A stretch of DNA of 64,000 nucleotides from Candidatus Bathyarchaeota archaeon (GTDB lineage: Archaea; Thermoproteota; Bathyarchaeia; Bathyarchaeales; Bathycorpusculaceae): contig CAVYHV010000009.1 in the NCBI GenBank assembly GCA_963768425.1, forward strand, positions 192,001 through 256,000, given 5' to 3'. Both the position numbers and the translations under genes were made by a program. This document shows positions 16,847-46,564 of the stretch, piece after piece (positions within the stretch are counted from its first letter, which is position 1; every line of letters starts with the position of its first letter). Below the pieces are notes generated by a model that searched no databases, was not told the DNA's origin, and saw only the letters and a list, made by a program, of their open reading frames with translations.

Positions 16847-16888
16847 ATTTCAAGAAACCCTATTCCACAGAATTTCGGGACAAATGCA

Positions 16889-16913
16889 GCTCGCTGGTTT
16901 GTCCTGAAATTGG
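16889..16913 (+). repeat. 25-bp boundary site, copy 1 (overlaps an inverted degenerate copy, forming hairpin 16871-16911)
   Basis: GCTCGCTGGTTTGTCCTGAAATTGG. Confidence 0.75.
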
Positions 16914-17021
16914 TGTAAGCTGCTTTCCAGCAATTGAAATATACGCAATGAGCAAGCTCTACGGTTCAGAATTGTGTAAAACTTAAATTCGATTAGCAAA
17001 CTAAATAGGTTCATGAGCTAA

Positions 17022-17630
17022 ATGCATTGGCTAAAGAGACGGCTTATCCATGAAAATGTCTTAATTCGGACCGCTACGTTATGGATTCTGTGTTTTGTTT
17101 TATTGACTGTCGCATGGTTTGTTAGTTTCTATTTTCTTCCCTACGGCATTCTTAGAGGCGTATTCCCCTCAGCGTACTTGCCTTTAGGGAACAGTTTTCT
17201 CAGCGTTTTCTTTGCCATATTCCTGTTTAATTTGCTCGTCGGATGTGGGCTTTCTGTTGCCTTGAATCTATTGAGCGCGAAGTCCATTCCGCTAGGTTAC
17301 CTCTATCCTTTGATCCAAGTCAGCCTTTTCGGAATCTTCTTAGGAACAGATTCATTTGCAATTACACACGGAAGCAAGCTTTTTCCGAGTATTATCACGC
17401 TCGTTGGTGGAGCTGGCTTCTATGAACTTACGTCATATGTCCTTGTTGCCACAGCCACAGCTGGGTTTACATTATGGAATCAAACGGGATGGCTAGGAGG
17501 CAGTTTAGTTAAAATTAGGGAAAGAAAAGAGTTGAAACTTTCTAGGTCAGAGCTATTCACTATTACCATTGGAGTTTTACTTCTTCTCGTGGCAGGTGCC
17601 ATAGAAGCTATTGGTATTATGGGAGCTTAA
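17022..17630 (+). CDS. Integral membrane protein (SpoIIM-like)
   Basis: About 5 TM helices; IFLFN, G.YEL..Y, LLLVAGAIEA. Confidence 0.6.
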   Translation: MHWLKRRLIHENVLIRTATLWILCFVLLTVAWFVSFYFLPYGILRGVFPSAYLPLGNSFLSVFFAIFLFNLLVGCGLSVALNLLSAKSIPLGYLYPLIQVSLFGIFLGTDSFAITHGSKLFPSIITLVGGAGFYELTSYVLVATATAGFTLWNQTGWLGGSLVKIRERKELKLSRSELFTITIGVLLLLVAGAIEAIGIMGA

Positions 17631-17654
17631 TGGGCGAGAAACCGAACAACTAAG

Positions 17655-19248
17655 CTACGTTGAGCGTTTAGAAGATTTGTCTCTTAATGAATAAACTAAT
17701 AGGAAGCCGAAGACTCCAAGTAAAATGAGGGTACCTGCCAGGATCAAGATTTCCGTTTCATTCATGGTGAGGGCTCCGTTGTCGTTCGCCTGCGTTGCAG
17801 ATTTGATTGTTACTTGGTGGGTGCTATGATGGTAAGTGAATGTTACTATCCAGTAGGATCCGTTTGAGTCTACGGAGGAGTTAACCAGGTTTCCATCGAT
17901 GTAGACTTGCAGGTTGCCCGCCGGAATCAACGTTTTAGCTATCGTTACCTTGGCGAACCCTGTTGTCCCTGTTGGTCCGCTGACTGTGAAGCTTAGCTCT
18001 GAGTCGGTAGAGTTGAAGAACAGGCTGGAGACGGTGCTATTTGATTCTATAGAGAAGTATGTTGCGGATGTGATTTGAGGTGGTTGAGTCGAGTTGCCGC
18101 TATAGGGGTAGGTGATGACTCCGCTGGTTTTAGGGTATGCTTGCGGGTTAGGCGCCGTTAAGCAGGGACTGATGCTTACCGTACCAAGAGTGGGATCGAA
18201 TGCGTGGTCGTGTACAGTTTGAGAGATTGCTTGTAAGTTGGTTGTTCCCCACCAGTTGTAGGTTGCGGTGAGGTTTATGTCGGATTCGTAGTAGATGTTG
18301 TATTGGCTGCTGTTGAGGATGTTGTTGCCTATAACCGTTGGCATTGTCGGGCTAGGAAAGGAGGGGCCAGACCAAAAGTTGAAGATAAATATACCTATAT
18401 TGTTGTTGATTAGAGTGTTGTTTTCAATAGTTGCTGAGGAGGAAACTGCCATGGCGTCTCTTGTACAGTTTTCCACCAAGTTGTTTTGGATAAGGGCAGT
18501 TGTTGAACCGCCTTCACCAGCGTCGATTCCATCAAGCCCACATGTGACGGTGTTGCCAATTATAACTGCATTAAGTTGGCCACTGTGCTTCAGCTGGTCC
18601 AGCAGCGATTGCAATACACAGAGATGGAGTATAAGCGGAGCCGTTAAAAGTTTGGTAGCGAGGAGAAATGCCCGCGATGACGTTGTTTTCAATCGTGGGC
18701 GACCCTTCTTCAACACCGATTTGACCAACAACATTGTTGTTTGAAATGACAGGCGCTTGCGAGCTTTCATTCCCGCTTATCTCACCGACAATGTTGCTGT
18801 CGATGATTCGTGGAGAACCGCCGAAAAGATAGATGTTGCCATCAATTGTGTCGTTATCTATCTTGGCAGAGTTGCAAAGTTCGAGGTAAGATACGTTTAC
18901 CACGGCGTCTTGGATAGCGGTTCCGCTTGAACCGCTTTGTGTTATCACGATGTCTCCGCTGCCGTAGAGCTGAATATTGTCAGCGTTTGTGCCGACCGCA
19001 ATTAACGTTCCCTCAACCTGCAGGATGGCACTCTGATTGAGGTCGACGGTGACGCCTGGCTGAATAGTTAACGTGGCTCCGCTTGCGACGATGACCGAAG
19101 ACGCAAGGGTGTATGGACTGTTGGAGGCAGTCCAAGTTGTGTCTGAACTGATGATGTCGGCGGAGTTCTCCCCGTTAACAGTTAAGGTGATAAAGAAAAA
19201 ACCGCAGATCAACACGGCAATCATGAGGGCGGTGGCAAGTTTCCTCAT
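17655..19248 (-). CDS. Surface protein with right-handed beta-helix repeats, frameshifted
   Basis: Signal peptide; DTTWT..NSPY; TLTIQPG; I.NN.I repeats; ATYNWWGT; C-terminal TM plus basic tail. Confidence 0.8.
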
Positions 19249-19382
19249 TCTATTCCCAAACTGGAAGTGACTTTACGATTCTTATACATCTTTCTAATAA
19301 GTCGGCAGGGGGATTAGCGCTTGCAAAAAAGGAGAAAAAGAACATGTGAAGCAGACGTATATTTTAAGCCGTCACGCAGTAA

Positions 19383-19407
19383 GCGCGCCAGTTCGTTGCT
19401 AAATTGA
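19383..19407 (+). repeat. 25-bp boundary site, copy 2 (degenerate)
   Basis: GCGCGCCAGTTCGTTGCTAAATTGA. Confidence 0.6.
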
Positions 19408-19434
19408 TTTCTTTATGTTAGTTTCTGCTTATCT

Positions 19435-19630
19435 TGCAAGCATAGTGATGCATCTGGTTTTTCAGGTCTGTTCAGCCTCTATTCAGCCTTAAACTGTCGT
19501 CACCGTTAAAACATGACGATCACGCAGAGCAGCGATACGAAATTAAGGATTTACAGTCAGGAAGATCGGAGTGCGATTACCGCAAGAGAACGCACAAAGA
19601 AGCGGTGCACGCGATGGGCTGGCGCTTGCA
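19435..19630 (+). ncRNA. Candidate structured RNA
   Basis: Closing stem TGCAAGC/GCTTGCA, internal stems and an H-type pseudoknot; no credible ORF. Confidence 0.35.
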
Positions 19631-20027
19631 TTCTAAAGACAAAAAATAAAAACAATCAAAATAATCATTAACAACCAAAAGCTCATCAGCGGATTCTGAA
19701 CTTTCGATAGATACTTCGCAATTATATGTTACGGTTTGTGACTGTTAGTTATCAATCACATAGATTCATATTCCTTTTTCAAGCTCTATGTTCTAACACC
19801 GTTCCTGATGCGCCTACTTTCATTTGATGAGTGCAAATTTTAGTTAACAAGAAACATGAAAGGATGAAAAACATGAATAAAACTAAAGTTTTTATGGTTA
19901 GATTTCCTATATCGTTTTCGTTGTTAATTTCTGAATTAGCGAGTATGCAATCTAAAGCTCTTACGTGCACCTACACTGCGAGCATGCCGCTAACATCCGC
20001 AAAGGGTTTATCCTGTGAGGTGAAACA

Positions 20028-21341
20028 ATGAAGCATGTGACAGCAAAGACTTTGAGAGTTGGCTGCATCCTTCTCGCTATCTTCTTTTTGTTATGTGCTT
20101 TCGCATTATTGCCTCAGCCAGTTCACGCTGCTACGAATACGGTGACGGCGACGGTAACCGTTGGAAGCGAGCCTGGCGGTGTGGCCGTAACGTCCAACGG
20201 TTCATACGTCTACGTTGCAAATTACGAGATCAACACAGCCTCGGTGATTAACACGGCGACGAACACGGTGACGGCGACGGCAACCGTTGGAAGCAAGCCT
20301 ACCGGTAGTCTCTGCACAGTTTTGTCGTCGGACTTGGCTTTAACGCCCAACGGCGAATACGCCTATGTAACAAATAGCGGCGGCACTACGGTTTCGGTGA
20401 TAAACACAGCGACGAATACGGTGACGGCAACGGTAACCGTTGGAACCGAGCCTGTTGGTGTGGCTGTAACGCCCAACGGTGCATACGCCTATGTAACAAA
20501 TTACGGTAGCAAGTCGGTTTCGGTGATAAACACGGCGACGAATACGGTGACGGCGACGGTAACCGTTGAAGACGAGCCTGGCGGTGTGGCTGTAACGCCC
20601 AACGGTGCATACGCCTATGTTGCAAATCTTGGCAGTAATTCGGTTTCGGTGATAAGCACGGCGACGAATACGGTGACGGCGACGGTACCTGTTGGAGGCT
20701 ATCCTGCCGGTGTGGCTGTAACGCCCAACGGTGCATACGCCTATGTTACAAATAGCGGTAACAATTCGGTTTCGGTGATAAGCACAGCGACGAATACGGT
20801 GACGGCGACGGTAACCGTTGGAATCATTCCTGTAGGTGTGGCTGTAACGCCCAACGGCGAATACGCCTACGTTGCAAATTACGTGAGCAACACAACCTCG
20901 GTGATTAACACGGCTACGAACACGGTGACGGCGACGGTAACCGTTGAAAGCGAACCTACCGGCGTGGCTGTAACGCCAAACGGTGCATACGCCTACGTTA
21001 CAAATTTTGGCAGTAATTCGGTTTCGGTGATAAGCACGGCGACAACTGCTTCCCCATCTCCTACAATTCCAGAATTTCCAGCCCAATTGCTAATAATTAC
21101 GTTAGTTGTCTTTATGATCACAGGCTTGTCTGCAGTTATTATTGCAAGGAAACGGATAACGCACAGGCGTGCTGGCTTGTCCTCAAATTCGTATATGCGA
21201 GACAAAAAAGAAGAGGGAAATTTTCAGTTTTTCTATTCTGGCTGTTTCGCCTATGTTATTTTCGGATGGTTTTTCTTGTTCTATCTTTGTATGCAACTGC
21301 GGAAGCGGTCAGTGCACTCATGGCTACAACAACTGAAATGA
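20028..21341 (+). CDS. YVTN-family 7-bladed beta-propeller surface protein with PEF-CTERM
   Basis: Seven 42-aa repeats (GVAVTPNG.YAYVTN..SVSVI.TATNTVTATV.VG); PTIPEFP, TM, RKR. Confidence 0.9.
   Translation: MKHVTAKTLRVGCILLAIFFLLCAFALLPQPVHAATNTVTATVTVGSEPGGVAVTSNGSYVYVANYEINTASVINTATNTVTATATVGSKPTGSLCTVLSSDLALTPNGEYAYVTNSGGTTVSVINTATNTVTATVTVGTEPVGVAVTPNGAYAYVTNYGSKSVSVINTATNTVTATVTVEDEPGGVAVTPNGAYAYVANLGSNSVSVISTATNTVTATVPVGGYPAGVAVTPNGAYAYVTNSGNNSVSVISTATNTVTATVTVGIIPVGVAVTPNGEYAYVANYVSNTTSVINTATNTVTATVTVESEPTGVAVTPNGAYAYVTNFGSNSVSVISTATTASPSPTIPEFPAQLLIITLVVFMITGLSAVIIARKRITHRRAGLSSNSYMRDKKEEGNFQFFYSGCFAYVIFGWFFLFYLCMQLRKRSVHSWLQQLK
21167..21191 (+). repeat. 25-bp boundary site, copy 3
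   Basis: GCGTGCTGGCTTGTCCTCAAATTCG directly after the YVTN anchor codons. Confidence 0.8.
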
Positions 21342-22404
21342 GCGCTGCATTGCTGAATTCCGGAACTTTCGGCGTGGGAGTTGATGTAGATGAGGTGGAA
21401 CTTGTTGGGGTTGCGGTTGTAGGTGTGCCTGAGGAAACTTGCGTAACGGTTACTGTGCCGGGGTCGTTTCCGTTAGTTACAAAGACTTGGCCAGTGCCTG
21501 AATCGTAAGCTATACCAGCTGCATTAGTTCCAACATTAAGGGTCGATGTAACGGTGTTGCTGGTGTCGGAAATGACTGTGCCGAGGCTGCCGATTATTTC
21601 GCCGTCGCTTGAATCATAGACTAAGGTACCTGCAGTTCCACCTAAAGGTCCCACGTTGTTGATCACCTTAGAGATCGCGTTGTTGCTGTCTGAGATGACG
21701 GTGATGTCGGTGCTGTTTGTCGCGTATATTCTGCCTTTGGCGGAATCGTAGACTAAGTTGCCTGGCGGCGAGTACGGATCTGTAGCCACCTTAATGGTTT
21801 TTATGACAGTGTTTGATTTGTCGGATATAACGGAAACGTCGACGCCGACTGTTACGGAAGCGAAGATTTCGCTTTTAGCTGAATCATACGCGAGCGAACC
21901 TGGGTAAGAGTTGATAGTGATGTTTGCGACAATGGTGTTGGTTGTGTCTGAAATAACTGAGACCGTGTCTGTGTAGGCATCGCAAACGAATATCTCGCCT
22001 TTGCCTGCGTCATAGGCTATTCCTGTGGCACCTCCCGAGAGATGTATGGTGGCAACAATTGTGTTCGAACTGTCCGATATTACGTCCACTCCGCCGCCGC
22101 TGCCTTGTTGAAGTTCGGAAACGAACATTTCGCCTTTGCCTGAATCATAAGCTAAAGCAAAAGGAGTGTATGACAATCCGCTTATAGTTTGAACGACGGT
22201 GTCAGAGCTATCTGAAATAACCGAAAGGGCACCTCCGTCAGGATCCGCAACGAATATCTCATGCATATTTGAATCGTATGCTACTGCGCCGGGGTAGACT
22301 CCTACCCCCGTAATCGATGTTTGGGCGTGAACTGAATTGGCTGCTGACAAGACAAAGATCACAATAGACAATAAACCCATAATCTTCCAAACTTTTGCTT
22401 TCAT
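21256..22404 (-). CDS. YncE-like beta-propeller surface protein with PEF-CTERM (paralog A)
   Basis: Repeats AYDS.KGEIFV..VISD.SNT.V; KVPEFS, TM, basic tail. Confidence 0.85.
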   Translation of the reverse strand: MKAKVWKIMGLLSIVIFVLSAANSVHAQTSITGVGVYPGAVAYDSNMHEIFVADPDGGALSVISDSSDTVVQTISGLSYTPFALAYDSGKGEMFVSELQQGSGGGVDVISDSSNTIVATIHLSGGATGIAYDAGKGEIFVCDAYTDTVSVISDTTNTIVANITINSYPGSLAYDSAKSEIFASVTVGVDVSVISDKSNTVIKTIKVATDPYSPPGNLVYDSAKGRIYATNSTDITVISDSNNAISKVINNVGPLGGTAGTLVYDSSDGEIIGSLGTVISDTSNTVTSTLNVGTNAAGIAYDSGTGQVFVTNGNDPGTVTVTQVSSGTPTTATPTSSTSSTSTPTPKVPEFSNAALISVVVAMSALTASAVAYKDRTRKTIRK

Positions 22405-22645
22405 ATGTATTCCTTTCCTTTCGTTTTATGGCTTGCACTTGATAAGTGAAAGCTAGCGCTAAGCCTTTGTTACCCCATAATCTATAAAAGACTTTACCAA
22501 AAATTTCTAAAACTTTTTCGGGACAAACATTCAGTTAATGAACAATTGTTTATAGGAATTGCGCGCTGCCGTATTGGATGTAGATTCTGAAAGCTCTTGA
22601 AACAAAGGTCCAAAAATAACGAGAAGATGGATAAAATAAAAAGGT

Positions 22646-22945
22646 TTAGCTTGGTGTTTCTTCAAAAGCGTCTTCAGGCGCGGGTTCTTTTTCTGCTTCT
22701 TTGGTTTCTTCTTTTTGAATTTCTGTTTCTTTTTCGGTTGCTGATGTTTCTTCATGTGAGCTGAAGGTGAACACTACAAATGAAATGACGGCTCCCAGCA
22801 AGTACGGCAAAATTGAAGTGAAGATGTTATATACAAACAAGCTCGCAGGAGCGGCTGACGTATACATTACCCTATTTAATTCGTAATTTGTTAAGGCAGC
22901 CAATCCTGCAAACACTATGAACGCTATACCGACCCGAAGAGACAA
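22646..22945 (-). CDS. Small 2-TM membrane protein with acidic tail
   Basis: Two hydrophobic segments, Glu-rich C-terminus. Confidence 0.6.
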   Translation of the reverse strand: MSLRVGIAFIVFAGLAALTNYELNRVMYTSAAPASLFVYNIFTSILPYLLGAVISFVVFTFSSHEETSATEKETEIQKEETKEAEKEPAPEDAFEETPS

Positions 22946-23229
22946 CTTCTTAATGACTTCCCAGTTTTGTATTTGTTCTCACCTTGTCTCCTGCTAACAT
23001 CCGCATTCCTTTTAAATCGTTGCTTTATGAAACTCTGCTAAGCTGCAAGGCTCAGAACATGGGTTTTTCACATCACATACGGGTAAACCAGCACGTTGGG
23101 CTTATCCCGAAAAAAAAGATTATTTTTAAAGTGAGGGTCCATCTTTTGAGTAACTCCGTGCTTACCAGGTTCGCGCTGATTAAGGGTTCTCTTCTTTCTT
23201 GCTTTCTTTCAGTTTCTCAATCTCCATGT

Positions 23230-23547
23230 TTATGTGCCCAGAACAGCCTCAAGTTTCTCTTTTCTGCGTTGCAGCATTTCAAGAACTTGCTCATTGCTTG
23301 GTTTAAGCATGGGTTCGCCACACGCTGGACACTGCATTCCGGGTCCAGAGCTCCAAGGCATCCCCCCGTGCATTTGTCCTCCCATCATGGCGTGACCTCT
23401 CCAGGAACCCATTCCACCCCAAGGACCCATCCAACCCATCCTAGGTTTCCACTCCTTTGCAGCCGCCATCAAAGCTTCGTTTACCTCCACTTCAACTGTT
23501 ATTTTCGCTTTTCCACTTTTGTCTTCACTCATCAAAATCACCTCCAC
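23230..23547 (-). CDS. Gly/Met-rich protein with CxxC and coiled coil (DUF5320-like), end frameshifted
   Basis: MGWMGPWGGMG..., CPACG, EMLQRRKEKLEA; GGAGGTG RBS. Confidence 0.55.
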   Translation of the reverse strand: MEVILMSEDKSGKAKITVEVEVNEALMAAAKEWKPRMGWMGPWGGMGSWRGHAMMGGQMHGGMPWSSGPGMQCPACGEPMLKPSNEQVLEMLQRRKEKLEAVLGT

Positions 23548-23654
23548 TTACGGGCGCTTTTTTGGCTATCACCTATTTTTTCAATCAAACCAAGCTTATA
23601 ATCAAATGTGATTGTAACTTGCCAGCAACATCATCAAAGGAAGATACCATTCTA

Positions 23655-23679
23655 TCGCGCTGGTTTATCCCTAAATTGA
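23655..23679 (+). repeat. 25-bp boundary site, copy 4
   Basis: TCGCGCTGGTTTATCCCTAAATTGA. Confidence 0.75.
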
Positions 23680-23698
23680 AACACTTATAACTAGAAAT

Positions 23699-23932
23699 GG
23701 AGTCTCGTATCTTGAGAACCAATCAACACAAGGAAGGTGAATCCCTGCGATACAGGATGAACACGAGACCCTTGAAACCTTCTTCAAAAACGTTGACTTA
23801 AGCTTTGCTCACAAAATCCTAACCAGATGCTTCCACCTTTCTGGTCCCGGAAGGCCACCCAGAAGCCCACTTTGCCTCTTTCAAATGTTCTTAGTCATGC
23901 GTATGAAAGCAGTGCGTAACGGAGAGAAATAG
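23699..23932 (+). mobile_element. Truncated IS remnant (IS5/IS1182-like transposase N-terminus)
   Basis: LETFFKNVDLS...GPGRPPRSP..LF..FLVM.MK.VR resembles the DUF772 region; frame ends at 23932. Confidence 0.6.
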
Positions 23933-24041
23933 TTTTGTATCCAAACTCAAGGTGCCTATGTAAACTCTTTCATTCATATCGTCACTATTTACCGATAGGC
24001 AAAACTGACATAGAAGCTATTCGGATGGCAATTCTGCTAAT

Positions 24042-24581
24042 TTAGGCCATAGGCACTTCTAATGTAACAGCTCCATCTATAATTTCCCTTTTTACTTTTC
24101 GGCTGCAGCAAGCTTCCAAAAGAGTTGAGACAACATCACTGACATAAAAACTCCAATTTCCACCCAAATTATGGCGTAAATGAAGAACCTCAATATTCTT
24201 AACTATATAATGCTCACATTTGAACCAATTTGCATACTCACTCAATATCGTCGTAATAAAAAAAATGGCGTCTTCGTTGTTAAACCTGAGTCCCATTGAC
24301 CGAAAAAGGTCCAAAGCAATGTTTGAGCCAGCATTTTCGGCAATGTCATTCAATTTATCTTTTGGACACGCCTCTGCAAAGCGTGATACGGTCCTCTGCG
24401 TCAAGACTATTACATCGAGCCGTTTCAAGAATCTTTGGAATAAACAATAATCTCTAAGAATCCCATTAATGAGGGCGTTTGGAGTTGTGTGTTGCCGTTC
24501 AGCCTCCTGGTTCAAAGTGTTGAGCCATCGTTCATTAATTCTGAAAGAACGCCCCACTGTTCGATTCTTACGTTCAACCAT
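24042..24581 (-). CDS. Ribbon-helix-helix regulator with V4R-like C-terminal domain
   Basis: RSFRI.E..L..L..EA....TPN.LIN.IL; HNLG..WS. Confidence 0.65.
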   Translation of the reverse strand: MVERKNRTVGRSFRINERWLNTLNQEAERQHTTPNALINGILRDYCLFQRFLKRLDVIVLTQRTVSRFAEACPKDKLNDIAENAGSNIALDLFRSMGLRFNNEDAIFFITTILSEYANWFKCEHYIVKNIEVLHLRHNLGGNWSFYVSDVVSTLLEACCSRKVKREIIDGAVTLEVPMA

Positions 24582-24703
24582 TTCTAAAAAGCACTCCTAA
24601 AAATCCTAGGATGTATCGCGCTATAATACTTTGCGATTTATTGCATTTCAATGTTTACATAGCTTCCTTATAGGTGAAAATCGTGTTGAGGAGAGGGATT
24701 TAT

Positions 24704-25115
24704 TTGAAATTCAACGAAACAGAAAGAAGATACATAGTTCTCTTGGTAGATGGTGACCACGCTTAGCTAGGTGCAAGAAAATGTTTAGAGGCTCAAGGTG
24801 GTCTGGATGTTGAAACTGTCTTCTCAAGTCGTGAAGCATTCAAAAAGATGGAAAAGATAAAACCTGACGTTATAGTCTGCAGTTTTCGATTGCAAGGGGA
24901 AAATCCTTGCGATTTCCTAAAGGAGCTCCGCGACAAGGGTATTGCAATCCCCTTTTATTGGTTTGACGGATGACGAAAATCACTTAGGACTTAAAGCTTA
25001 TCATTTGGGTGCGAGCGGTTTAGTTAATAAATTTGTGGATCCCTCGATTCTTTATCCACAGCTGAAGAAACTCGTGCTGTCTCTCGTAGAGCCTTTTGAT
25101 GGCGAGGAATCCTAA
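24704..25115 (+). pseudogene. Stand-alone response-regulator receiver, disrupted and atypical
   Basis: VLLVDGD, KPDVIVCS, LKELR, IPF, LGASGLVNK; in-frame TAG near 24764 and a frameshift. Confidence 0.65.
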
Positions 25116-25225
25116 ATGACCAAACAATTCACCTGTTGGTGCGACCTTACAGTCACACACGCTTAACCCACCAGTGATCAGTTATAAAGTAGTTCTTGTT
25201 GTCGTGAAAGGAGGGATAGATAAGA

Positions 25226-25515
25226 ATGAAAAGTAAAGATTTTATGGATAAAGATGTGTTTGCATTAAATAAAAAATCGGCAAGATCAAAGAAATAGAGT
25301 TAGATCCATAAGAATGGAAAGTTACTCATCTTGAAGTCGAATTGGATAAAAACGTTTCCGAATCAGTGCTTGGCGCAAAGAAAGGCGGAGTACGAAACAT
25401 GCTAAACGTTTCAGCTTTAGAGAAAGGAACCGGCATGTGGACAGACGATGGGTTGCACTTAAAAGTTGCAAAAGACCAATTGCACATGTACTTAAAACCA
25501 GTAGTTAAAACTTAA
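25226..25515 (+). CDS. PRC-barrel domain protein, frameshifted
   Basis: MKSKDFMDKDV...IGKIKEIELDP..WKVTHLEV; GGAGG RBS. Confidence 0.7.
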
Positions 25516-25558
25516 GCCTGCGCAATTTTTTAGCGTATTTTGGTAGGTGTAACAAATT

Positions 25559-25752
25559 ATGTCAGAACATCATGTAGATGTCAAGGAACAGATAGAGAAA
25601 ATGGGCGAGAAATGGAGCGAATTCCAGAAATCGTTGGGTTTATCACTTCGAAGACTTGGATGTTGAAGTATTAGACTGGAACTTCGTGTTGGAAAAACCG
25701 ACAACGACACATCTTGATATAAAAGCCAAAGTGGCTAAGACAAAAGAGGTAA
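25559..25752 (+). CDS. Small hypothetical protein, frameshifted (end approximate)
   Basis: MSEHHVDVKEQIEKMGEKWSEFQK; AGGTG RBS. Confidence 0.4.
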
Positions 25753-26016
25753 TAATCCTTAACACCTTGGGCTCAATGAAACACCATTTTTTTTTCTAAG
25801 AACACTAATATCCTAATGCATTATTTTCAAATAAGCGGCTTAGTCTTTCTTGTCCTTTTAAACATTTTTTGTGGAAGATAGTCAAAGCAAGATAGATTCT
25901 GAGAAATACTCAAACTTATCACAAATTTAGCAGAGCTAAACAAAGATGATTTCTTTTCTTTGCAAAAAAAGTTTGAAAGCAGAATATAGCGCTTGCTTAG
26001 GTGTCTTTGGTTGATG

Positions 26017-26175
26017 TTATATTCTGCGTCCTGTAACTAGTCGGTAAACTATTATGATGAGGGCGATGACAAGCAGTAGCCATATAATGTCGCCAAGGTT
26101 GAAGATGAAAAAGCCAAGCAACCATAGCAAGATTAGAATCGCAGCAACTACGATAAGAAAGTCAAGTGTTCGCAT
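26017..26175 (-). CDS. lmo0937-family small membrane protein (52 aa)
   Basis: ILILLWLLGFFIFNLGDIIWLLLVIALIIIVYRLVTGRR; GGAG RBS. Confidence 0.8.
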   Translation of the reverse strand: MRTLDFLIVVAAILILLWLLGFFIFNLGDIIWLLLVIALIIIVYRLVTGRRI

Positions 26176-26385
26176 TTTCAAAAACTCCACTTACCCTTGA
26201 CTCGCCAGTCTATTTTAAGCTGTGTGACTGCAAATGGACAGTAACAGCTTTATTATCTTGTCCATTTAGTCTCTTGATGTATATGTATTGGGTTTTTGAA
26301 TTTCTTTTAGGTTCAGTTTTCTTTAAAACGGCAGTACCAATTTATTTATTAGCCGCTGTGAGAGTAGATTTTTTGAGGATTTTTA

Positions 26386-26557
26386 ATGAGTGACGAAGAA
26401 GCAAAAGGTAAGATTGAGAAAACAAAAGGCAAGATTCGTGAAGACTTAGGCAAAAATTACAGGCGACAAAAACAAGCAGGTTAAGGGCAAAGTAGAACAA
26501 GTCAAAGGCAAAGTCCAAGAAGAAGTAGGAAAAGCAAAAAGAAAAGCCAAAGAGTAA
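26386..26557 (+). CDS. csbD: CsbD family stress protein (one extra A in a homopolymer)
   Basis: EEAKGKIEKTKGKIREDLGKITGD...KGKVEQVKGKVQEEVGKAK. Confidence 0.85.
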
Positions 26558-27353
26558 ACATTAACAACTCAACGTTTTAGACAGAATAAGCAAAGATGCG
26601 ATTAGCCAAAGAGCTACTGGAAACGTTTTCGACTACTTTTGTTGTTAAATTAACAAGCACTCTGTCTATTTTATTCAAGGCTCTGAATCACACGCCAAAG
26701 GATGGCCTTTGCCTTCAGTTTGTCAATAGCGTTCTATTAAGTACGTTGGAAGGGCCATCTTGCATTGTCTTGTGCATAATTGTTCATCCGATGAAAGCTG
26801 TATGTTCATGGTAGAGGCTAAAAGCTTTATGATAAGTTAGGATTTACGCGTGCGCTCAACTTAGCTGCTATACACTGATCTGTGGAAAAATAGGAAGCGC
26901 AAAATTGTCGTATAAGTGCTTTCCTTATGCACGTCTAACACGCAAACTAAGGCGCTCATAACATGGCGTGCCGCCTCTTGGTTAAAACACTTCGCATACC
27001 ATCGCGCTAAACACCTGTGTCTTCCTGTAAAATAACAATTACTAGTTCCCTCATCTATCTTCTGAAATTAATTTTAGCATGTTTTACTAAAACTCTTTAT
27101 TCTTAAACATCTAGTTCTACGCCGCACCTCTTTTTTTCTTAATTTTTTTCTTAGCTTGCCTCGCATCCACTGCGGCAAGCATACGGAAAAAATCCTATCA
27201 TGCAAAGTGTGCGCTCCTCCCTCCTTGTGCGCGTCTCCCTCCTCCATGTGTGTGATTATGATTGTGACTGGTTGTGGTTGGTTGTAGTTAGTTTAGAGAG
27301 AGAGAGGATTAAATTTTAGGGCCCAACCAATTAACTCAAAAATAAATGTCAAC

Positions 27354-27378
27354 TCAATTTAGGGACAAAGCGGCGCGC
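27354..27378 (-). repeat. 25-bp boundary site, copy 5
   Basis: Reverse strand GCGCGCCGCTTTGTCCCTAAATTGA. Confidence 0.75.
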
Positions 27379-27446
27379 GTGTCACCAACTTGCTTTAATT
27401 AAATCAGGGACATGCCACCAGCGATCTAAGAAAAACACTGAAAAAC

Positions 27447-27674
27447 TCATGCATCCTGCCTGCAGATGGAATGAAAGCGGGCTATTTCTAAGTGTAGTGT
27501 TTCATTTTGCTTGCTTTGATTAGAATCTGCTTTGTCAAGTACGTTGTTGATCCCTCTGAGTGGTTGCCTGTTTTTTTTGGGTTCAACTATGTGATTGTTT
27601 ACGGCACGGTTCATGGCTTTCAAATCAGGAACCACCAAAATCTTAACACCGCACATGCATCTGACAATGGGCAT
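27447..27674 (-). CDS. Small zinc-binding protein
   Basis: MPIVRCMCGVKILVVPDLKAM..A..NH; C-terminus probably frameshifted. Confidence 0.55.
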   Translation of the reverse strand: MPIVRCMCGVKILVVPDLKAMNRAVNNHIVEPKKNRQPLRGINNVLDKADSNQSKQNETLHLEIARFHSICRQDA

Positions 27675-27971
27675 TTGTCTTTTTTGTAGGTCGACTTTCC
27701 TTGGATGAACTTGGCGAACACATGTTCATTTTCTGACTAATTTTTCTTGCCATGGTAACTCATACATGACTCAATTAAAGCCAACTCAAATAGTATGTCT
27801 TGCATCAAATATAAGAAGAAGTGATAGGCAGAGATAACAATCACAAATCAAAGATGCGCAAAAGCTCGCCTGAAAAGCTCAAAAAAATAGCACAAGTCAA
27901 GTTTGAAAAGCCGTTAAGCATTTCCTTTTAAGAAAAAAAAGAAAACGAAGGGTTGTTGTTATTTTGTTTTT

Positions 27972-28634: not shown

Positions 28635-28640
28635 TTATTT

Positions 28641-30383: not shown

Positions 30384-30583
30384 CTATGCAACTAATTATG
30401 CGTAAGCGAAATATCTATTTTTGCAGGATAGTTGATACTAAACGCGGTCGGGTAGACCCACGAAGATCGGACATTGGCAATATTGTCCTAGCACACGTTT
30501 TGCACAACAATTCAGATACAGGGTTCCTCGCGAGATAATCTTAATAGCCTGAACAAGATAAAATCCATCAGCAGCGTGCCTCT

Positions 30584-34169: not shown

Positions 34170-34197
34170 AACAAACACAAGCGAAGAACCCCAACCA

Positions 34198-34222
34198 TTG
34201 CGCTGTCTCGTCCTTAAATTCG
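34198..34222 (+). repeat. 25-bp boundary site, copy 6
   Basis: TTGCGCTGTCTCGTCCTTAAATTCG between the sedolisin stop and the YncE-B downstream region. Confidence 0.75.
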
Positions 34223-34280
34223 TTAATGTGAAAAAAAAGGGGAAACTGTCAGGTTTTGTATTATGGCAGTTTCATCTGTT

Positions 34281-35492: not shown

Positions 35493-35959
35493 ATGTATTC
35501 CTTAACCTTTCATTTTATAGCTTGCACTTGATGTGAAAGCAATATCTCAGTGTGTTAATTCCGAATTGATATAAAAAACTTTACGGAAAATTCCTTAATA
35601 CTTTCTAGGTCAACAACTGCGACTTTGTGCGCCAGAGAACTCACGATTTTGATTAATGCCTAATTCGATGAGTGATCCGCCGAGGGTTCTTACTGTATAG
35701 AGTGGAATGAAAATAGAGGGTGGGTCGAACGCTATTTTATGGGAAAGGAAACCCGGGACGCCACTTAGCCGAGAAAGGATTAGGGAGAAGAATTGAAATA
35801 TTTATTCCATGCGTCAAAACCTGTTTCCGCAAATGGCCAGCATCTTTTTTGGTTTCCTTTTTGGATTTATGGGTTCTTTTAGAAGGAATGTTTCGAGATT
35901 GGAAATATCAAAGATATAGCTGAAAACAGTTGAGAACTAGAAAAGGAGACACAGAACTA

Positions 35960-36163
35960 ATGAAGTGTGGTAGGCGTTCTGAGGAATGTTGCAAAGAAGC
36001 CAAATTCGAAGTTGACGTTTACGCGGTGAAGCGGGTGGATAAAGGCAGATTCTTTCGATATGAACGGAGCAGTAAGCTTAGCAAGCTATTTTTCTGTGAA
36101 GACCATGCGGCTCCTTTTTATCAGGATAAATTGAACTATGAAATAACTGAACTGAAAAAGTGA
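35960..36163 (+). CDS. Small zinc-finger protein
   Basis: MKCG...CC...FFCEDHA; AGGAG RBS. Confidence 0.55.
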   Translation: MKCGRRSEECCKEAKFEVDVYAVKRVDKGRFFRYERSSKLSKLFFCEDHAAPFYQDKLNYEITELKK

Positions 36164-36304
36164 CGCAAAAAATACGCGTGATAGGTTGAAGGTGGCCGCT
36201 GAAATATTGCTGTGTTATGTACACTGAGAGCTAACAGCCTAAAGCTTAAACTCTCAAAAAAACTGAGGTGGAATTTGTTTAATAGCTTGTTTGTAAAGGT
36301 TGCA

Positions 36305-36436
36305 TTAGTTTTTGCAGTCGACTAGATGGGCTGTGCCGTCTGGACAAAAGACTTTCTCGCCTACGCAAACCCGTTTGAAACGGCGTTTGCACTCAGAAAG
36401 TTGTCTTTCGCATCCGTCACAATCACGAGATAGCAT
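36305..36436 (-). CDS. Cys-rich microprotein (43 aa)
   Basis: MLSRDCDGCERQLSECKRRFKRVCVGEKVFCPDGTAHLVDCKN; GAGGTGA RBS. Confidence 0.65.
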   Translation of the reverse strand: MLSRDCDGCERQLSECKRRFKRVCVGEKVFCPDGTAHLVDCKN

Positions 36437-36697
36437 CTTGTCACCTCATCATTTTAATATTAAATCGTAAGTAATGTAATATCATATAATTAAAGATTAT
36501 CGTTTTACAATCATTTATGGATAATTTGTCCTACCAGATCGTTACCCATTGATTAATTGCTTCGTTGCATTTCATTTCTTTTAGTTCTTCACAATTTGCC
36601 TTGGGTTCGTTTGGCGTGTATCCATGCTGAATAACCTTTATTAAGACTTACTACACAAGTTATACTTGCAGCAGACCCACTGATGTAAGAGGGTAAC

Positions 36698-37771
36698 ATG
36701 CAAAAACGGATACTTTCAATAAAAACAGCAGTAGTGGCGTTAGTGCGGGAAGTTCCAATCCGGATAAAAGGATTAGTTGCAGGTTTAAAGTCAAAGCTTC
36801 CGGGGACGGCGTCGGTAGCGGCGTTAGTGCGGGAAGTTCCAATCCGGATAAAAGGATTAGTTGCAGGTTTAAAGTCAAAGCTTCCGGGGACGGCGTCGGT
36901 AGCGGCGTTAGTGCGGGAAGTTCCAATCCGGATAAAAGGATTAGTCGTAGGTCTAAAGTCAAAGCTTCCGGGGACGGCGTCGGTAGCGGCGTTAGTGCGG
37001 GAAGTTCCAATCCGGATAAAAGGATTAGTCGTAGGTCTAAAGTCAAAGCTTCCGGGGACGGCGTCGGTAGCGGCGTTAGTACGGGAAGTTACATTCTATG
37101 AACAGTTAAAAAAAGCCACGCAGCTTTCTAAACCACATAATGACAAGTCAAAAAAGCTTGAAGTGACAGCGTCAAAACCGAAGATTCCGAAAACAACTCA
37201 CGTGGCAGGTTCAAAACGAAAACTATCAAAAACAACCTTGGTAGTTGTTTCATTAGTTATGATAGGACTGGCTTTATCGGTTACCACTTTTGCTGTCATC
37301 ACCAACTCGCCAATTCCGTCTTCAGCTGATATATTGAAAACTTTACCAAACGTTTCCAATAGCACTGCCACACAATCACCAAACGTGGCCAGTAGCCTAT
37401 CATCAAAGTCAAACGTGCTTTCCAATGGGGCAGTGACAACATCGGCGAACTGTGGCTTGTATTCTGACAGCGCGTGCATCACACCATTGAGCTCCATAGA
37501 CTGGGGAATTTTAACCGCTGGAGGAACTGTCACTCAAACAATCTACGTCAAAAACACAGGCAGCGGCCTTCCGCTAACTTTGAACATGACGACAACTAAT
37601 TGGAGTCCAGCAAGCGCAAATGGACCAATAACTGTAACATGGGACCAAGAAGGCACAGTATTATCGCCTGGGCAATCGATAGCTGCAACCCTAACATTGG
37701 CTGTCTCCTCGAGCGAGATTGGGCTCGCAAACTTCGGTGTCCAAATATCTATAACAGGCACAAATTCCTGA
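36698..37771 (+). CDS. Membrane-anchored TasA/pilin-like protein with N-terminal 28-aa repeats
   Basis: 4.3 repeats, basic segment, TM ending TTFA, Ig-like domain paralogous to 39091-39549. Confidence 0.65.
   Translation: MQKRILSIKTAVVALVREVPIRIKGLVAGLKSKLPGTASVAALVREVPIRIKGLVAGLKSKLPGTASVAALVREVPIRIKGLVVGLKSKLPGTASVAALVREVPIRIKGLVVGLKSKLPGTASVAALVREVTFYEQLKKATQLSKPHNDKSKKLEVTASKPKIPKTTHVAGSKRKLSKTTLVVVSLVMIGLALSVTTFAVITNSPIPSSADILKTLPNVSNSTATQSPNVASSLSSKSNVLSNGAVTTSANCGLYSDSACITPLSSIDWGILTAGGTVTQTIYVKNTGSGLPLTLNMTTTNWSPASANGPITVTWDQEGTVLSPGQSIAATLTLAVSSSEIGLANFGVQISITGTNS
36731..37090 (+). repeat. 84-bp tandem repeat, 4.3 copies
   Basis: Units start at 36731, 36815, 36899, 36983, 37067; near identical. 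Confidence 0.95.
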
Positions 37772-44123: not shown

Positions 44124-44266
44124 TAAACAAAAGAATCCCTCAATTTAATTCTAAACATTAGAACACCTCAAGAGAAGGTACACCAAAAGTGAATTAAAGC
44201 AAGGCATGTGTCCAGAAAACTGGACTTACAGAAAATTCTCTTATTCTTTTTTGTTTTTTGTATAAG

Positions 44267-44280
44267 CGAATTTGGGGACA
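44267..44280 (-). repeat. 25-bp boundary site, copy 7, split by IS1182 (other part 45919-45929)
   Basis: Removing the IS and one GACA gives reverse-strand GCGCGCTGGCTTGTCCCCAAATTCG, 23/25 identical to copy 3. Confidence 0.8.
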
Positions 44281-45914
44281 GAGACCGTGTGAAAATTCAT
44301 CGTTTACTCTGAGCATGGAGACGCTTCAAGCTTGCTAAAACCATGTTTCTCTTCCCTTCCACTTTTTGCTTCCTGACTTCACCAGAAAACCCGCATGAAC
44401 CCGGGTCCAAGAATGTTCAGAACCCGCCTAATATTGTAGGCCAGCACAGTGTAGCCGACTTCTCCACATACTTTCCTAAGTCCCTTGAGCAGAAGATAAC
44501 CTTGATTGAAAGCTCGCTTCATAGTCCCAAACGGATGTTCCACAAGACTCTTCCTCAAAGCCATCCTCTTAGGCTCACGAAGCATCCTTTCCCTCAACTC
44601 ATCAAGCACTTCAGCGTGTTCCCAACGCCACAACGTCCGCCCATGCTTATTCAACGTACACTTCGTCATGAAAAACTCACAGCAGAAGCACGCCTCAGTC
44701 CTGTAGACTCGAATGTTCTTTTGATGAGCATGATCCAAATAGCTGAAAACAAGCTTATTTCCCGCTGGACAAACAAACGTATCCGTTCCCAGATCGTAGA
44801 CGAATTTATCAACATGGAATTCTCGGGTCGGAACACCCTTCCTCTTGACAAAACCAGCACCGTACCGATTCTGTTCTGGCACATAAGGAACAATGCCGTT
44901 ATCAACGCAGTCTTTGATTTGAACAAAACTGAAGTATCCCTTGTCAGCAACAGCCTCTAGACTTTTTGCTCCGAGCATCTCCTTAGCGCCTATAGCCATG
45001 GAGCTGAGCTGGCAATTATCAGCCGGAGCATTGGTCACGTTGTAATCCACAATCAAATGATTCTTATCATCAACCGCAACCTGACCGTTATAACAAGGCT
45101 CAATTCTACCTCGATTCTTCATCAGCCTACAGTCAGGGTCAACCTGTGATATCTCGTTCTGCTTGGATTCTTTGAGCTTGGCCAGAATATCGGAGTATTC
45201 TTCTTTGCGTTTCATGAGTTTTTGGACTTTTTCCTGAATCACTTCAACACGTTTATGGTTGGCCTGCTCTTCTCTGCGATCTTCTTCCTCAACCTCGGCT
45301 AAGTACTTTGATACTTGTTTGTCGATCTCTTTCATTCTGTAATCGAGTTTTTTGCGGTTGAAGTTGCGGTCAAGACCGTTGACGGCCTTGAATTTGGTTC
45401 CGTCTACAGCGATGCATTTGGCTCCGTAAAGATCTAAGCGCATGCAGAGTTTAACGAATTCTCGAAAGACGCCTTTCACGCAGTCAATGTTGTCTTTTCT
45501 GAAGTCAGCGATTGTTTTGAAGTCTGGAGTTAGCTTTTTCATCAACCACATGACCTCAAGGTTTCGATGGCACTCACGTTCCAGCTTTCTGCTTGAACGA
45601 ACCTGATTCAGGTATCCGTAAACATAGAGTTTTAGAAGGTCCGCGGGGTCGTATGAGGGTCTTCCAACCTCAGCTGGTACAGAATGCTTGAAGCCGAGTT
45701 TCTTCAAGTTGAGGCTGTCAACGAAGGCGTCAATGAATCTGACTGGGTTTTCTTTATCCACATATTCTTCGAGCGTTTCTGGGAAGAGGGCTGTCTGGTT
45801 TCTGTTGTGGCCTTCTACATGTTCGCTCATGGCTCATCAGTTGCTTTAAAGCTAGTCTAGATTTAAGGTTAACGGTTAGTTGCCAACGACTAAAACAGGT
45901 TTTCACACGGTCTC
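44281..45914 (-). mobile_element. Complete IS1182-family insertion sequence
   Basis: Perfect 15-bp TIRs GAGACCGTGTGAAAA; 4-bp TSD GACA (44277-44280, 45915-45918). Confidence 0.95.
44379..45830 (-). CDS. IS1182 family DDE transposase
   Basis: GRPSYDP, SSRKLE, PDFKTIADFRK, VDGTK, ADKGY, VEHPFG. Confidence 0.95.
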   Translation of the reverse strand: MSEHVEGHNRNQTALFPETLEEYVDKENPVRFIDAFVDSLNLKKLGFKHSVPAEVGRPSYDPADLLKLYVYGYLNQVRSSRKLERECHRNLEVMWLMKKLTPDFKTIADFRKDNIDCVKGVFREFVKLCMRLDLYGAKCIAVDGTKFKAVNGLDRNFNRKKLDYRMKEIDKQVSKYLAEVEEEDRREEQANHKRVEVIQEKVQKLMKRKEEYSDILAKLKESKQNEISQVDPDCRLMKNRGRIEPCYNGQVAVDDKNHLIVDYNVTNAPADNCQLSSMAIGAKEMLGAKSLEAVADKGYFSFVQIKDCVDNGIVPYVPEQNRYGAGFVKRKGVPTREFHVDKFVYDLGTDTFVCPAGNKLVFSYLDHAHQKNIRVYRTEACFCCEFFMTKCTLNKHGRTLWRWEHAEVLDELRERMLREPKRMALRKSLVEHPFGTMKRAFNQGYLLLKGLRKVCGEVGYTVLAYNIRRVLNILGPGFMRVFW

Positions 45915-45928
45915 GACAAGCCAGCGCG

Positions 45929-46564
45929 CTAATATATGGTTCCGTCAAGCCATGTTAGAGGTCCAGTGTAGGGTTGAGTTCCAACATCAACAATGGTGCT
46001 GAGGCAAGTTGAAGGTAGGCCAAGAACGTATAACCCATCTGACCCTCCTGAAGTGACAGTGTAGTTAACAACCACTTGAAAATAGCTCACAAATGTCACA
46101 CCTGATTCAATAATACTCAATCCGGAGCCAGTTCCAAGCGTGCCATTCGACAAAACATTTAACACGCTAACTGGATTTCCAAAAACCGGATTAAATATGG
46201 GCACAGTCAAATTGTTAAAGCCGATTCCCGTATACGTAACCGTAAATTCACCCACGCTGTTCCGTAACAGAACAAATTCAATTGTTCCCGAAGTAGGATA
46301 AACGGTCGTCACGAAACCGGTCGAGTTCGAAAAAGACAATGTCGCGTATATCATAGGACCGTTGCGCGCAATTGGACCAGCAGTTTCCTGGGGAGACGTT
46401 CCAACGGTTTGCCCAACAGTTGAAGCATCAGTTTTCTGAGGTGATGGCGCCTTCTGCTTTTGAGGCGGGTAGCCAAATTGATAGTAAAGCGGAACCAACA
46501 TTACAGCGATTAGAACTGCCACTGTTACGTAAAGCCATGCGTGTTTCCTAATCCCTTTTTGCAT
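45929..46564 (-). CDS. Membrane-anchored secreted hypothetical protein
   Basis: N-terminal TM, beta-rich body. Confidence 0.65.
   Translation of the reverse strand: MQKGIRKHAWLYVTVAVLIAVMLVPLYYQFGYPPQKQKAPSPQKTDASTVGQTVGTSPQETAGPIARNGPMIYATLSFSNSTGFVTTVYPTSGTIEFVLLRNSVGEFTVTYTGIGFNNLTVPIFNPVFGNPVSVLNVLSNGTLGTGSGLSIIESGVTFVSYFQVVVNYTVTSGGSDGLYVLGLPSTCLSTIVDVGTQPYTGPLTWLDGTIY

Follow-up and report, generated by a model that had tools for sequence, protein, structure and literature searches.

The 25-bp motif array of a Bathyarchaeia accessory region probably consists of worn insertion sequence ends

A 25-bp motif scattered through the accessory genes of an uncultured Bathyarchaeia archaeon is, with a probability of about 90%, the terminal inverted repeat (TIR) of an insertion sequence that we name IS-A, and its copies in the window (the whole stretch of 64,000 nucleotides that was analysed) would be the worn ends of old insertions. 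A first-pass annotation of the window had proposed that the same seven copies are recombination sites, or scars, of a tyrosine-recombinase-like system that shuffles gene cassettes. That mechanism has given way to another: the motif instead forms both ends of an insertion sequence with a DDE transposase.

The motif array

The window contains six intact copies of the motif and one split copy, all of them between 16.9 and 45.9 kb (Table 1). That the seven-copy motif is real is borne out by two scans. Allowing up to three mismatches to the annotated consensus recovers four copies (16889+, 21167+, 23655+ and 27354-) and none in 100 shuffles; the copies at 19383+ and 34198+ represent this motif too, at the higher mismatch counts listed in Table 1. 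With a weight matrix built from 17 copies in the genome, six of which are the window copies, so that their own scores are somewhat inflated, the six intact copies score 23-34 bits, the outer half of the split one scores 15 bits, and shuffled sequence yields only 2-6 matches of at least 7 bits. No score of at least 13 bits was found in the window upstream of 16.8 kb or beyond 46 kb. Of the 39 matches of at least 14 bits in the whole genome, 7 fall in this 29-kb stretch, where 0.39 would be expected (Poisson P about 2e-7). The copies fit what ISfinder/ISsaga describe as solo inverted repeats, MITEs and partial IS copies, but are unlike these in density (at least seven copies in 29 kb against 0.4 expected).

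The sites do lie at the boundaries of accessory genes, where blocks of homology with other genomes break, and the earlier view of them as recognition ends or scars of mobile DNA is supported; the statement that five copies follow the 3' end of a co-oriented gene is roughly correct (for example at 45929, 34198 and 21167). The four degenerate cores proposed alongside them fared unevenly: the one at 16871 is real and that at 27401 is weak (nhmmer E 0.011), the one at 22514 matches 13 of 14 bases and lacks conservation at the aligned place in relatives, and the one at 40255 was rejected for want of any weight-matrix match of at least 7 bits. Two degenerate copies had been overlooked, at 22559+ (GCGCGCTGCC) and at 46861+.

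Table 1. Features of the window assigned to IS-A ends or to IS-B (coordinates of the window; assignments to IS-A are probable).
Feature	Position	Strand	Evidence and context
Inner core of a second IS-A end, head to head with the 16889 copy	16871..16884	-	Exact reverse complement of the 14-nt core; outer hexamer common to both ends
Solo IS-A TIR	16889..16913	+	1 mismatch to consensus; 32 bits; nhmmer only IS positions 3-34, E 0.3
TIR of a second subtype (GCGCGCCAGTTYGTTGCTAAATT)	19383..19407	+	5 mismatches to the annotated consensus
Internal IS-A fragment, co-oriented with the 19383 end	19534..19609	+	nhmmer IS positions 845-921, E 1.1e-4
Solo IS-A left-end TIR	21167..21191	+	Within the extended 3' end of ORF 20028-21341 (YVTN/PEF-type surface protein)
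Degenerate IS-A right-end terminus, first 10 nt kept	22559..22568	+	G013 has a 124-bp remnant of an IS-A right end (E 1.3e-22), to whose terminus this stretch aligns
IS-A left-end remnant: TIR and about 250 nt of transposase leader	23655..23930	+	blastn 71%, IS positions 2-258; nhmmer 2-279, E 5.5e-53
IS-A left-end remnant: TIR and about 20 nt	27333..27378	-	blastn 85%, IS positions 1-46; nhmmer E 7.5e-4
Degenerate second terminus, 47 nt past the 27354 copy	27393..27425	-	nhmmer IS 1055-1105 at 27364-27417, E 0.011; weak
Solo IS-A left-end TIR	34198..34222	+	4 mismatches; 24.7 bits; 29 nt past the stop of a 972-aa PKD/Ig surface-protein ORF
Inner half of the IS-A TIR interrupted by IS-B	44266..44280	-	Sequence rejoins with the outer half
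IS-B, IS1182 family	44281..45914	-	483-aa transposase 44379-45830; TIR GAGACCGTGTGAAAA; 4-bp GACA target duplication
Outer half of the split IS-A TIR	45915..45929	-	Adjoins the stop codon of ORF 45929-46564
Possible degenerate IS-A right-end TIR	46861..46885	+	9 bits; nhmmer IS positions 1081-1109, E 0.29; weak

IS-A and its transposase

An intact IS-A of 1112 bp lies elsewhere in the same genome (C7:6437-7548), with the motif inverted at its two ends and an ORF of 290 amino acids. The element is 1100-1115 bp long, and its single 290-aa ORF, a DDE transposase, matches the Pfam families DDE_Tnp_1 (7.7e-15) and DUF772 (7.4e-8). Six transposases, 44-82% identical to the first, all share the residues D86, D176 and E232 as well as a Y-x2-R-x3-E-x6-K/R string. 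A Y-R-E-K string is a mark of IS4/IS5 transposases. On these features IS-A is a DDE insertion sequence of the IS5/IS1182 superfamily, whose members it resembles in having one ORF with both domains, the D-D-E triad and the Y-R-E-K-like string, and likewise in its TIRs of 23-25 bp, its size of about 1.1 kb, its many copies with unrelated flanks and its deletion derivatives. It is unlike them in that its transposase lies beneath every curated NCBIfam cut-off for an IS family (at best 81.8 bits against 270, for IS1182, and 68 against 140 for IS5_4), in its Bathyarchaeia hosts, and in showing, over about 30 copies, no target duplication outside the palindromic GCGCGC terminus, although a palindromic one of 2-4 bp could hide in GCGC.

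MITE-like deletion derivatives with both ends occur in this genome at C15:113814-114129 (316 bp) and C14:187816-188268 (453 bp), and contig C8 of the genome G016 carries a 182-bp non-coding unit with both IS ends; no complete MITE is present within the window. A search for empty sites, with 100-nt and 700-nt IS-A flanks taken from other genomes, never placed left and right flank side by side in this genome. In the best candidate, locus L038 compared with C12, the match runs to the IS boundary, beyond which the genomes diverge, and for a TIR-bearing insertion of roughly 140-155 bp on C13, G016 offers no cleanly empty site. Since neither a target duplication nor a clean empty site was found, the ends assigned to IS-A, and any view of its insertion chemistry, are provisional.

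Distribution across the genus

The motif is present in 31 of the 61 genomes of the genus and absent from the other 30, with 0-38 copies per genome and none for a reversed control pattern. Its occurrence goes with that of IS-A: both searches covered 25 genomes of the genus, and the motif is present in all 10 that contain IS-A DNA and missing from 12 of the 15 that do not. The genome G016 has seven full-length IS-A matches (IS positions 1-1112, 84-87% identity) on four contigs, and each of the nine copies examined there terminates at the motif, between unrelated flanks that differ right outside GCGCGC. Among 32 loci taken from MAG records of Bathyarchaeia, 22 have the motif at both ends, 9 at one end and 1 at neither. 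The genus through which IS-A has spread is one of soil and peat Bathyarchaeia.

Recombination site or operator

In outward look, as short boundary sites mostly sharing one orientation, the copies resemble Xer/dif, pdif and integron attC sites, and the genome does encode tyrosine recombinases (six PF00589 matches, five of them above cut-off). The resemblance stops there. The Xer-like 11-6-11 layout described in the first-pass annotation was rejected, as its arms are complementary at 3-5 of 11 positions at the claimed offset and at 5-6 of 11 at best across 17 offsets, which is the random level (mean 5.5, 95th percentile 7), and conservation stops at the start of the proposed right arm. No recombinase had been seen in the window; in fact, none of the PF00589 matches falls anywhere on the whole 279-kb contig C9. 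Unlike Xer/dif and pdif sites, the motif has neither a dyad with a central spacer nor an associated tyrosine recombinase, and the 30 genomes without it argue against a conserved chromosomal site. Unlike attC sites, which are long imperfect palindromes with an adjacent IntI, it is conserved over only about 25 nt and has no dyad beyond GCGCGC. A match to the end of an IS or MITE, named at the outset as evidence against a recombination site, is in substance what was found, because the motif ends a DDE insertion sequence. With the motif at both ends of such an element, a tyrosine-recombinase site, Xer/pdif- or integron-like, that shuffles cassettes is scarcely credible.

An operator bound by a host transcription factor near promoters would be a second way to account for a short recurring motif, and one feature of IS-A speaks for it: in the intact element a TATA-like TTTATTTTT and the transposase leader follow the TIR at a distance of about 10 nt, an arrangement that would fit self-repression of the transposase. 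The solo copies, however, stand at no constant distance from promoters or starts, with several of them past stop codons or inside 3' ends, and the motif follows the IS rather than a regulon, which makes the operator very unlikely. An outward promoter in the TIR, considered from sequence only, was dropped, as the directions of neighbouring genes are inconsistent.

Origin of the array

If the motif is the IS-A end, as we favour, the array may be envisaged as follows. The IS-A transposase, judging from its family, would bind both inverted copies of the end and move the DNA between them. The accessory region of surface-protein and small genes would have taken many IS-A insertions over time, and internal deletions and rearrangements would have stripped most of each element, leaving solo ends (16889, 21167, 34198 and the split 44266/45929), short end remnants (23655-23930, 27333-27378, and 19383 together with 19534-19609) and stubs (22559 and 46861). 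IS ends may moreover draw new insertions, in that some IS-A ends abut and IS-B lies at one fixed TIR position, and the intact IS-A on C7 could still provide transposase. Conservation would appear limited to the TIR because copies derived from left ends, right ends and different IS sublineages share the TIR only.

Clear IS interior is found at two window copies, 23655-23930 and 27333-27378, and an internal fragment follows the 19383 end. Past about 30 nt, nothing recognisably IS-like remains at 16889, 21167, 34198 and 44266/45929, and with nhmmer E values of only 0.15-0.3 these four are identified by the motif alone; tblastn with the IS-A transposase found no transposase remnants in the window region. 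Relatives retain longer IS-end remnants at positions aligned with the stubs or the bare TIR of the window, namely the 124-bp remnant in G013 and, in G063, a TIR with about 125 nt, located on the corresponding side of the gene homologous to ORF 20028-21341. Stubs similar to 22559 occur in G063 and G056. Random loss would not obviously spare exactly the TIR so often.

Individual sites add further detail. The abutted pair of ends at 16871/16889 has a parallel in G016:C8 (L024 3931-/3950+), and of the 16889 copy the TIR part alone matches in other genomes. The TIR variant at 19383 also terminates an IS on C17, the transposase of which is 43-44% identical to that of IS-A, and the variant together with about 100-150 nt of downstream sequence recurs in G004 and G016. 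Homology with G016 (89%) and G053 (90%) ends at 21161/21162. The 21167 TIR is found in contigs of all four peat metagenome runs. These contigs are short assembled pieces that cannot reveal circles, rare excisions or inversions, and the parts they leave uncovered (17.3-19.3 kb in three of the four runs) carry no weight either way. In 60 relatives, recurrence of the flanks 16800-17020 and 21150-21260 is confined to the TIR part, which places the flanks outside any wider repeat family. No Rfam family matched the stretch from 14 to 50 kb at gathering thresholds.

Gene cassettes between IS-A ends

In addition to being IS ends, some TIR pairs might bound non-autonomous gene cassettes that the IS-A transposase moves in trans. 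The window array would then partly consist of such units, with surface proteins, DinB, a methyltransferase and others as cargo. Relatives do have inverted TIR pairs, at 0.8-3.1 kb from each other, that surround non-transposase genes: an LCM-like methyltransferase (locus L074), an NHL/YVTN-like surface protein next to 288 nt of the IS-A left end (L076), an ornithine cyclodeaminase with an unknown ORF (L077), an unknown ORF (L078) and DinB (L080). A close parallel is the concept of mobile insertion cassettes of the MIC231 type, known from the Bacillus cereus group (Chen et al. 1999) and outlined in PMC6199540 and PMC3129680. The likeness lies in IS-type inverted repeats around genes without a role in transposition, with the cognate transposase elsewhere in the genome; the difference is that the TIR-bounded units of Bathyarchaeia are candidates identified from sequence and that the L074 cargo has no second TIR-bounded copy. 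Indeed, no TIR-bounded cassette was seen twice. The L074 cargo ORF occurs at six other places in five genomes, 95-97% identical, with no TIR of at least 9 bits within 1.5 kb save one 11-bit match about 1.3 kb off.

Within the window, the left end at 23655 and the weak terminus at 27393-27425 have the correct orientation to enclose 3.7 kb of non-IS DNA; that terminus and the 22514 core, weak or degenerate as they are, are the only partners available for inverted pairing. Homology between the 21167 and 34198 units begins at the TIR, and the flanks upstream of it are unrelated; here TIR and gene could have been copied together, as opposed to simple decay. Against transposition of a cassette, the far border of the 21167 unit is the direct-orientation stub 22559+ rather than an inverted end, and relatives do not conserve the inverted core at 22514. 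The two units, moreover, share one orientation and are separated by 13 kb, an arrangement that local duplication fits as well, and there are no target duplications to mark an insertion. On balance, cassettes mobilized in this manner seem rather unlikely as an addition to the IS-end explanation.

IS-B and the split end

The split copy is as it had been annotated: an IS separates the halves at 44267/45929, and the rejoined halves make up the full motif. This second element, IS-B, passes the NCBIfam IS1182 model (382.5 bits against a cut-off of 270). It occupies a single TIR position in the window, in a remnant on G000:C33, at L034 and L042, in G042 and twice in G068, not necessarily through independent insertions. 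IS231 inserts into the terminal repeats of Tn4430. IS-B is alike in sitting repeatedly at one position inside the terminal repeat of IS-A, and unlike in the IS families and hosts involved. A wider proposal, tentative and doubtful at present, is that IS-A ends serve as portable borders of cassettes of PEF-type beta-propeller surface-protein and accessory genes, moved or duplicated in trans by a single transposase, and that IS-B homes specifically to position 15 of the IS-A end.

Implications

For annotation, the value of this analysis is that the conspicuous "boundary sites" arrayed in this uncultured archaeon are most probably transposon ends, so that to report them as a new system of site-specific recombination would be mistaken. 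IS-A itself is now described with its ends, size, transposase and derivatives; a full-text literature search found no earlier description of it, and no paper on IS elements of Bathyarchaeia. The surface-protein region of these genomes appears to be remodelled around IS ends. If some of these ends do border mobile cassettes, they would offer a route by which uncultured soil archaea vary their cell-surface repertoire, and would constitute an archaeal, transposase-driven counterpart to cassette shuffling.

Insertion sequence IS-A

Scanning of the assembly (33 contigs, 2.96 Mb), in which the window is C9:192001-256000, at up to five mismatches returned about 20 occurrences of the 25-bp motif, clustered on contigs C7, C9, C10, C14, C15 and C33. 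Inward of the motif, conservation often continues in one of two forms, either a TATA-like box followed by a leader with a ribosome-binding site, or the tail of a coding region. Both occur on C7 in opposing orientation at a distance of 1112 bp, and between them is a 290-aa ORF that matches Pfam DDE_Tnp_1 and DUF772; because the two forms enclose a DDE-transposase ORF in this way, the motif is the terminal inverted repeat (TIR) of an insertion sequence, here called IS-A. Residues D86, D176 and E232 and a Y-x2-R-x3-E-x6-K/R string are kept in six aligned relatives that are 44-82% identical to the first sequence. In NCBIfam, the transposase falls between the IS1182 and IS5 models, under every curated cut-off, and is therefore filed at superfamily level only. 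A protein search yielded 1949 relatives at E ≤0.001 among 2861 candidates, named, where the source gives a name, transposase or IS5 family transposase; by analogy with this family, the protein would be an active, DNA-binding transposase. IS-A is an undescribed insertion sequence of the IS5/IS1182 superfamily, and no title or opening of an abstract retrieved in a literature search dealt with IS elements of Bathyarchaeota.

IS-A DNA is present in 11 genomes, this one included, in a search of 41 related genomes, with seven matches in the relative G016 that are 84-87% identical over IS positions 1-1112. In species-representative genomes, a protein-guided scan found 44 loci, nearly all in Bathyarchaeota/Bathyarchaeia MAG records (one is labelled Dehalococcoidia, one Patescibacteria). 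In 22 of the 32 loci examined, a unit of 1100-1115 bp has the motif at each end; nine loci show it at one end and one at neither. The motif occurs in 31/61 genomes of the genus, at 0-38 copies each, and the reversed control pattern in none; in the 25 same-genus genomes that both searches covered, the motif accompanies IS-A DNA in ten of ten cases and is missing from 12 of the 15 that have no IS-A DNA. The element ends with the GCGCGC of the motif and has unrelated flanks in 9/9 copies examined. Since the two outermost bases are the most variable, the element may really end 2 nt further inside, with a hidden GC-rich duplication; no target duplication is visible outside the palindromic terminus of the copies examined, and flank comparisons between genomes gave no clean empty site.

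Besides longer and internally deleted copies (Table), this genome holds many IS-A end remnants of 45-120 bp and, on C17, a distant relative with a transposase 43-44% identical to that of IS-A. The repeat in which this relative ends, GCGCGCCAGTTTGTTGCTAAATT, is a variant that the window has at 19383. In the related genome G042, a 2105-bp IS-A copy (C156:17828-19932) contains about 1 kb of extra DNA and is interrupted near IS position 693-696.

IS-A remnants in the window

The motif copies reported by the first-pass annotation are real: the consensus at up to three mismatches has four window matches (16889+, 21167+, 23655+ and 27354-) and none in 100 shuffles, while the copies at 19383 (five mismatches) and 34198 (four) are more diverged. 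The copy described as split by an IS has its inner half at 44266-44280 and its outer half at 45915-45929, and the intervening element (44281-45914) has inverted ends 15 nt long, with a 4-bp duplication, GACA. With a weight matrix built from 17 genome copies, the six intact window copies reach 23-34 bits, scores inflated by their own inclusion in the matrix. No match of at least 13 bits lies outside 16.8-46 kb of the window, and composition shuffles give 2-6 matches at 7 bits; the 29-kb stretch holds 7 of the genome's 39 matches of at least 14 bits, against an expected 0.39. Among the degenerate cores proposed earlier, support is solid for the one at 16871, weak for 27401 and absent for 40255, and 22514 is doubtful.

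Most window copies retain little more than an IS end (Table), and the window contains no transposase remnant. The gene unit 21202-22506 has homologues in G013, G056 and G063; its product is a 382-aa beta-propeller-repeat protein whose C-terminal anchor is read as PEF-type from the sequence, with no model match behind the label. In G013, a remnant of the IS-A right end, 124 bp long (E 1.3e-22), terminates where the window keeps only GCGCGCTGCC, at 22559, and G063 has the TIR with about 125 nt of IS leader on the side that matches the bare TIR at 21167. As these genomes hold longer IS-end remnants there, the bare repeats in the window are what can still be recognised of older IS ends. Conservation does not extend past the TIR because that is the only part common to left ends, right ends and different sublineages.

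The first-pass annotation had interpreted the sites as Xer-like recombination sites of a tyrosine recombinase that assemble gene cassettes. The proposed 11-6-11 arms are complementary at only 3-5 of 11 positions, and at 5-6 for the best of 17 offsets; the random mean is 5.5 and the 95th percentile 7. C9, the contig of the window, has no match to PF00589; the genome's six matches, of which five exceed the cut-off, are on C30, C14, C28 and C8. The annotation had itself named a match to an IS or MITE end as incompatible with cassette recombination sites, and such an end is what the repeat is. A chromosomal dif site would be distributed in the opposite way to this motif, which is patchy and multi-copy.

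IS-A copies, remnants, IS-B junctions and repeat-enclosed genes
Feature	Location	Size	Remarks
IS-A copy	G000 (this genome):C33:576-2688	2113 bp	~1 kb extra DNA with 296-aa ORF
MITE-like IS-A copy	C15	316 bp	internally deleted
MITE-like IS-A copy	C14	453 bp	internally deleted
IS-A left end	23655	~275 nt	E 5.5e-53
IS-A left end	27354	~45 nt	
Internal IS fragment	19534-19609		downstream of the 19383 end, same orientation; E 1.1e-4
IS end only	16889, 21167, 34198, split copy	~30 nt	
IS-B/IS-A repeat junction	window 44281-45914		
IS-B/IS-A repeat junction	G000:C33 ~2690-2760		remnant
IS-B/IS-A repeat junctions	L034; L042		
IS-B/IS-A repeat junction	G042:C84:4-29		
IS-B/IS-A repeat junctions	G068:C1:2425032 and 2957595		
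Repeat pair	L074		LCM-like methyltransferase
Repeat pair	L076		NHL/YVTN-like surface protein; beside 288 nt of IS left end
Repeat pair	L077		ornithine cyclodeaminase and unknown ORF
Repeat pair	L078		unknown ORF
Repeat pair	L080		DinB-family protein

Rearrangement borders and strain variation

Blocks 19383-21162 and 20015-21161 are 89% and 90% identical to blocks in G016 and G053, respectively, and both homologies stop 5-6 nt ahead of the 21167 repeat. The tail of the surface-protein gene there (20028-21341) is genome-specific directly past the charged anchor residues. Homology between the 21167 and 34198 units begins at the repeat, with unrelated DNA upstream; their proteins are 43% identical and their ends 75-76% identical in DNA. 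Because homology breaks at the repeats in these comparisons, IS ends mark rearrangement borders in the accessory region of the window.

Four of 24 listed peat metagenome runs supplied contigs, which were aligned to 16600-36500 at ≥90% likeness; being assembled contigs, they are unable to reveal circles or rare events. The 21167 repeat is present in 4/4 runs, in variants nearer the consensus. In 3/4, a contig joins 17189 to 19610, skipping 2420 bp in which lie overlapping, possibly frameshifted surface-protein ORFs, the IS fragment and the end at 19383; in 3/4, the match breaks at 16894, after the first six bases of the 16889 repeat, and restarts at 17115. As peat contigs skip or break at them, IS-bearing segments vary among related strains.

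ORF 20028-21341 encodes a YVTN-repeat surface protein (TIGR02276, 8 repeats) with a PEF-type anchor, its blades formed by 126-bp repeats at 20056-21138; it has no stop past the charged tail and runs on for ~60 codons through the IS repeat, and its homologues stop 3 (G053) and 11 (G016) codons past the divergence point. Overlapping ORFs of 371 and 225 aa at 17655-19248 (-) look like one frameshifted surface protein, and within ORF 36698-37771 lie five tandem 84-bp repeats (36647-37150), up to 98% identical. Segments of ~170-790 bp within 25123-26600 occur in multiple copies at 76-88% identity in many genus genomes, some without IS-A. The stretch 24.6-27.3 kb holds no ORF of at least 90 aa and may encode small membrane or stress proteins, such as the 57-aa ORF 26017-26190.

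IS-A ends as targets and possible cassette borders

At 16871/16889, as in G016:C8, two IS-A ends abut and have the outer hexamer in common, and full IS-A copies lie beside or within other end fragments at four loci (L031, L032, L039 and L040). The element splitting the window copy, IS-B, scores 382.5 bits against the IS1182 model (cut-off 270). In at least five genomes it sits at one same nucleotide of the IS-A repeat (...GGTCTC|TGTCC...), and since these junctions occur in the solo repeat as well as in full IS-A copies, a target preference of IS-B for the IS-A end is suggested. In this genome, the flanks of more distant IS-B relatives are different.

It is unlikely that IS-A repeat pairs additionally delimit mobile insertion cassettes (MICs). 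The architecture is that of a MIC at several loci of other genomes, where inverted repeats 0.8-3.1 kb apart surround non-transposase genes (Table); a passage of the ISsaga paper (PMC3129680) names MICs among the derivatives of ISs, beside MITEs and solo IRs, and an excerpt of PMC6199540 credits MIC231 to Chen et al. 1999. However, the L074 cargo ORF is found, 95-97% identical, at six other places without repeats, and the far border of the 21167 unit is a direct-orientation stub rather than an inverted one. The L074 methyltransferase ORF itself (284 aa; L074 682-1536, in G068) keeps 95-97% DNA identity in several species of the genus; this genome has two copies (C18:19601-20539 and C14:27070-27929), and others lie in G021, G095, G114 and G096. 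The homology stops within a few bases of the ORF, between unrelated flanks. Adjoining the left repeat of L074 is a 274-bp non-coding segment (300-573; G068:C1 ~1149905-1150178), which more than 25 genus genomes share at 83-96% identity, often multi-copy, and which may be another small repeat element.

The array in the window is not a new recombination system. Its sites are the ends and scars of IS-A in an IS-rich accessory region, and the biology that they reflect is ordinary.
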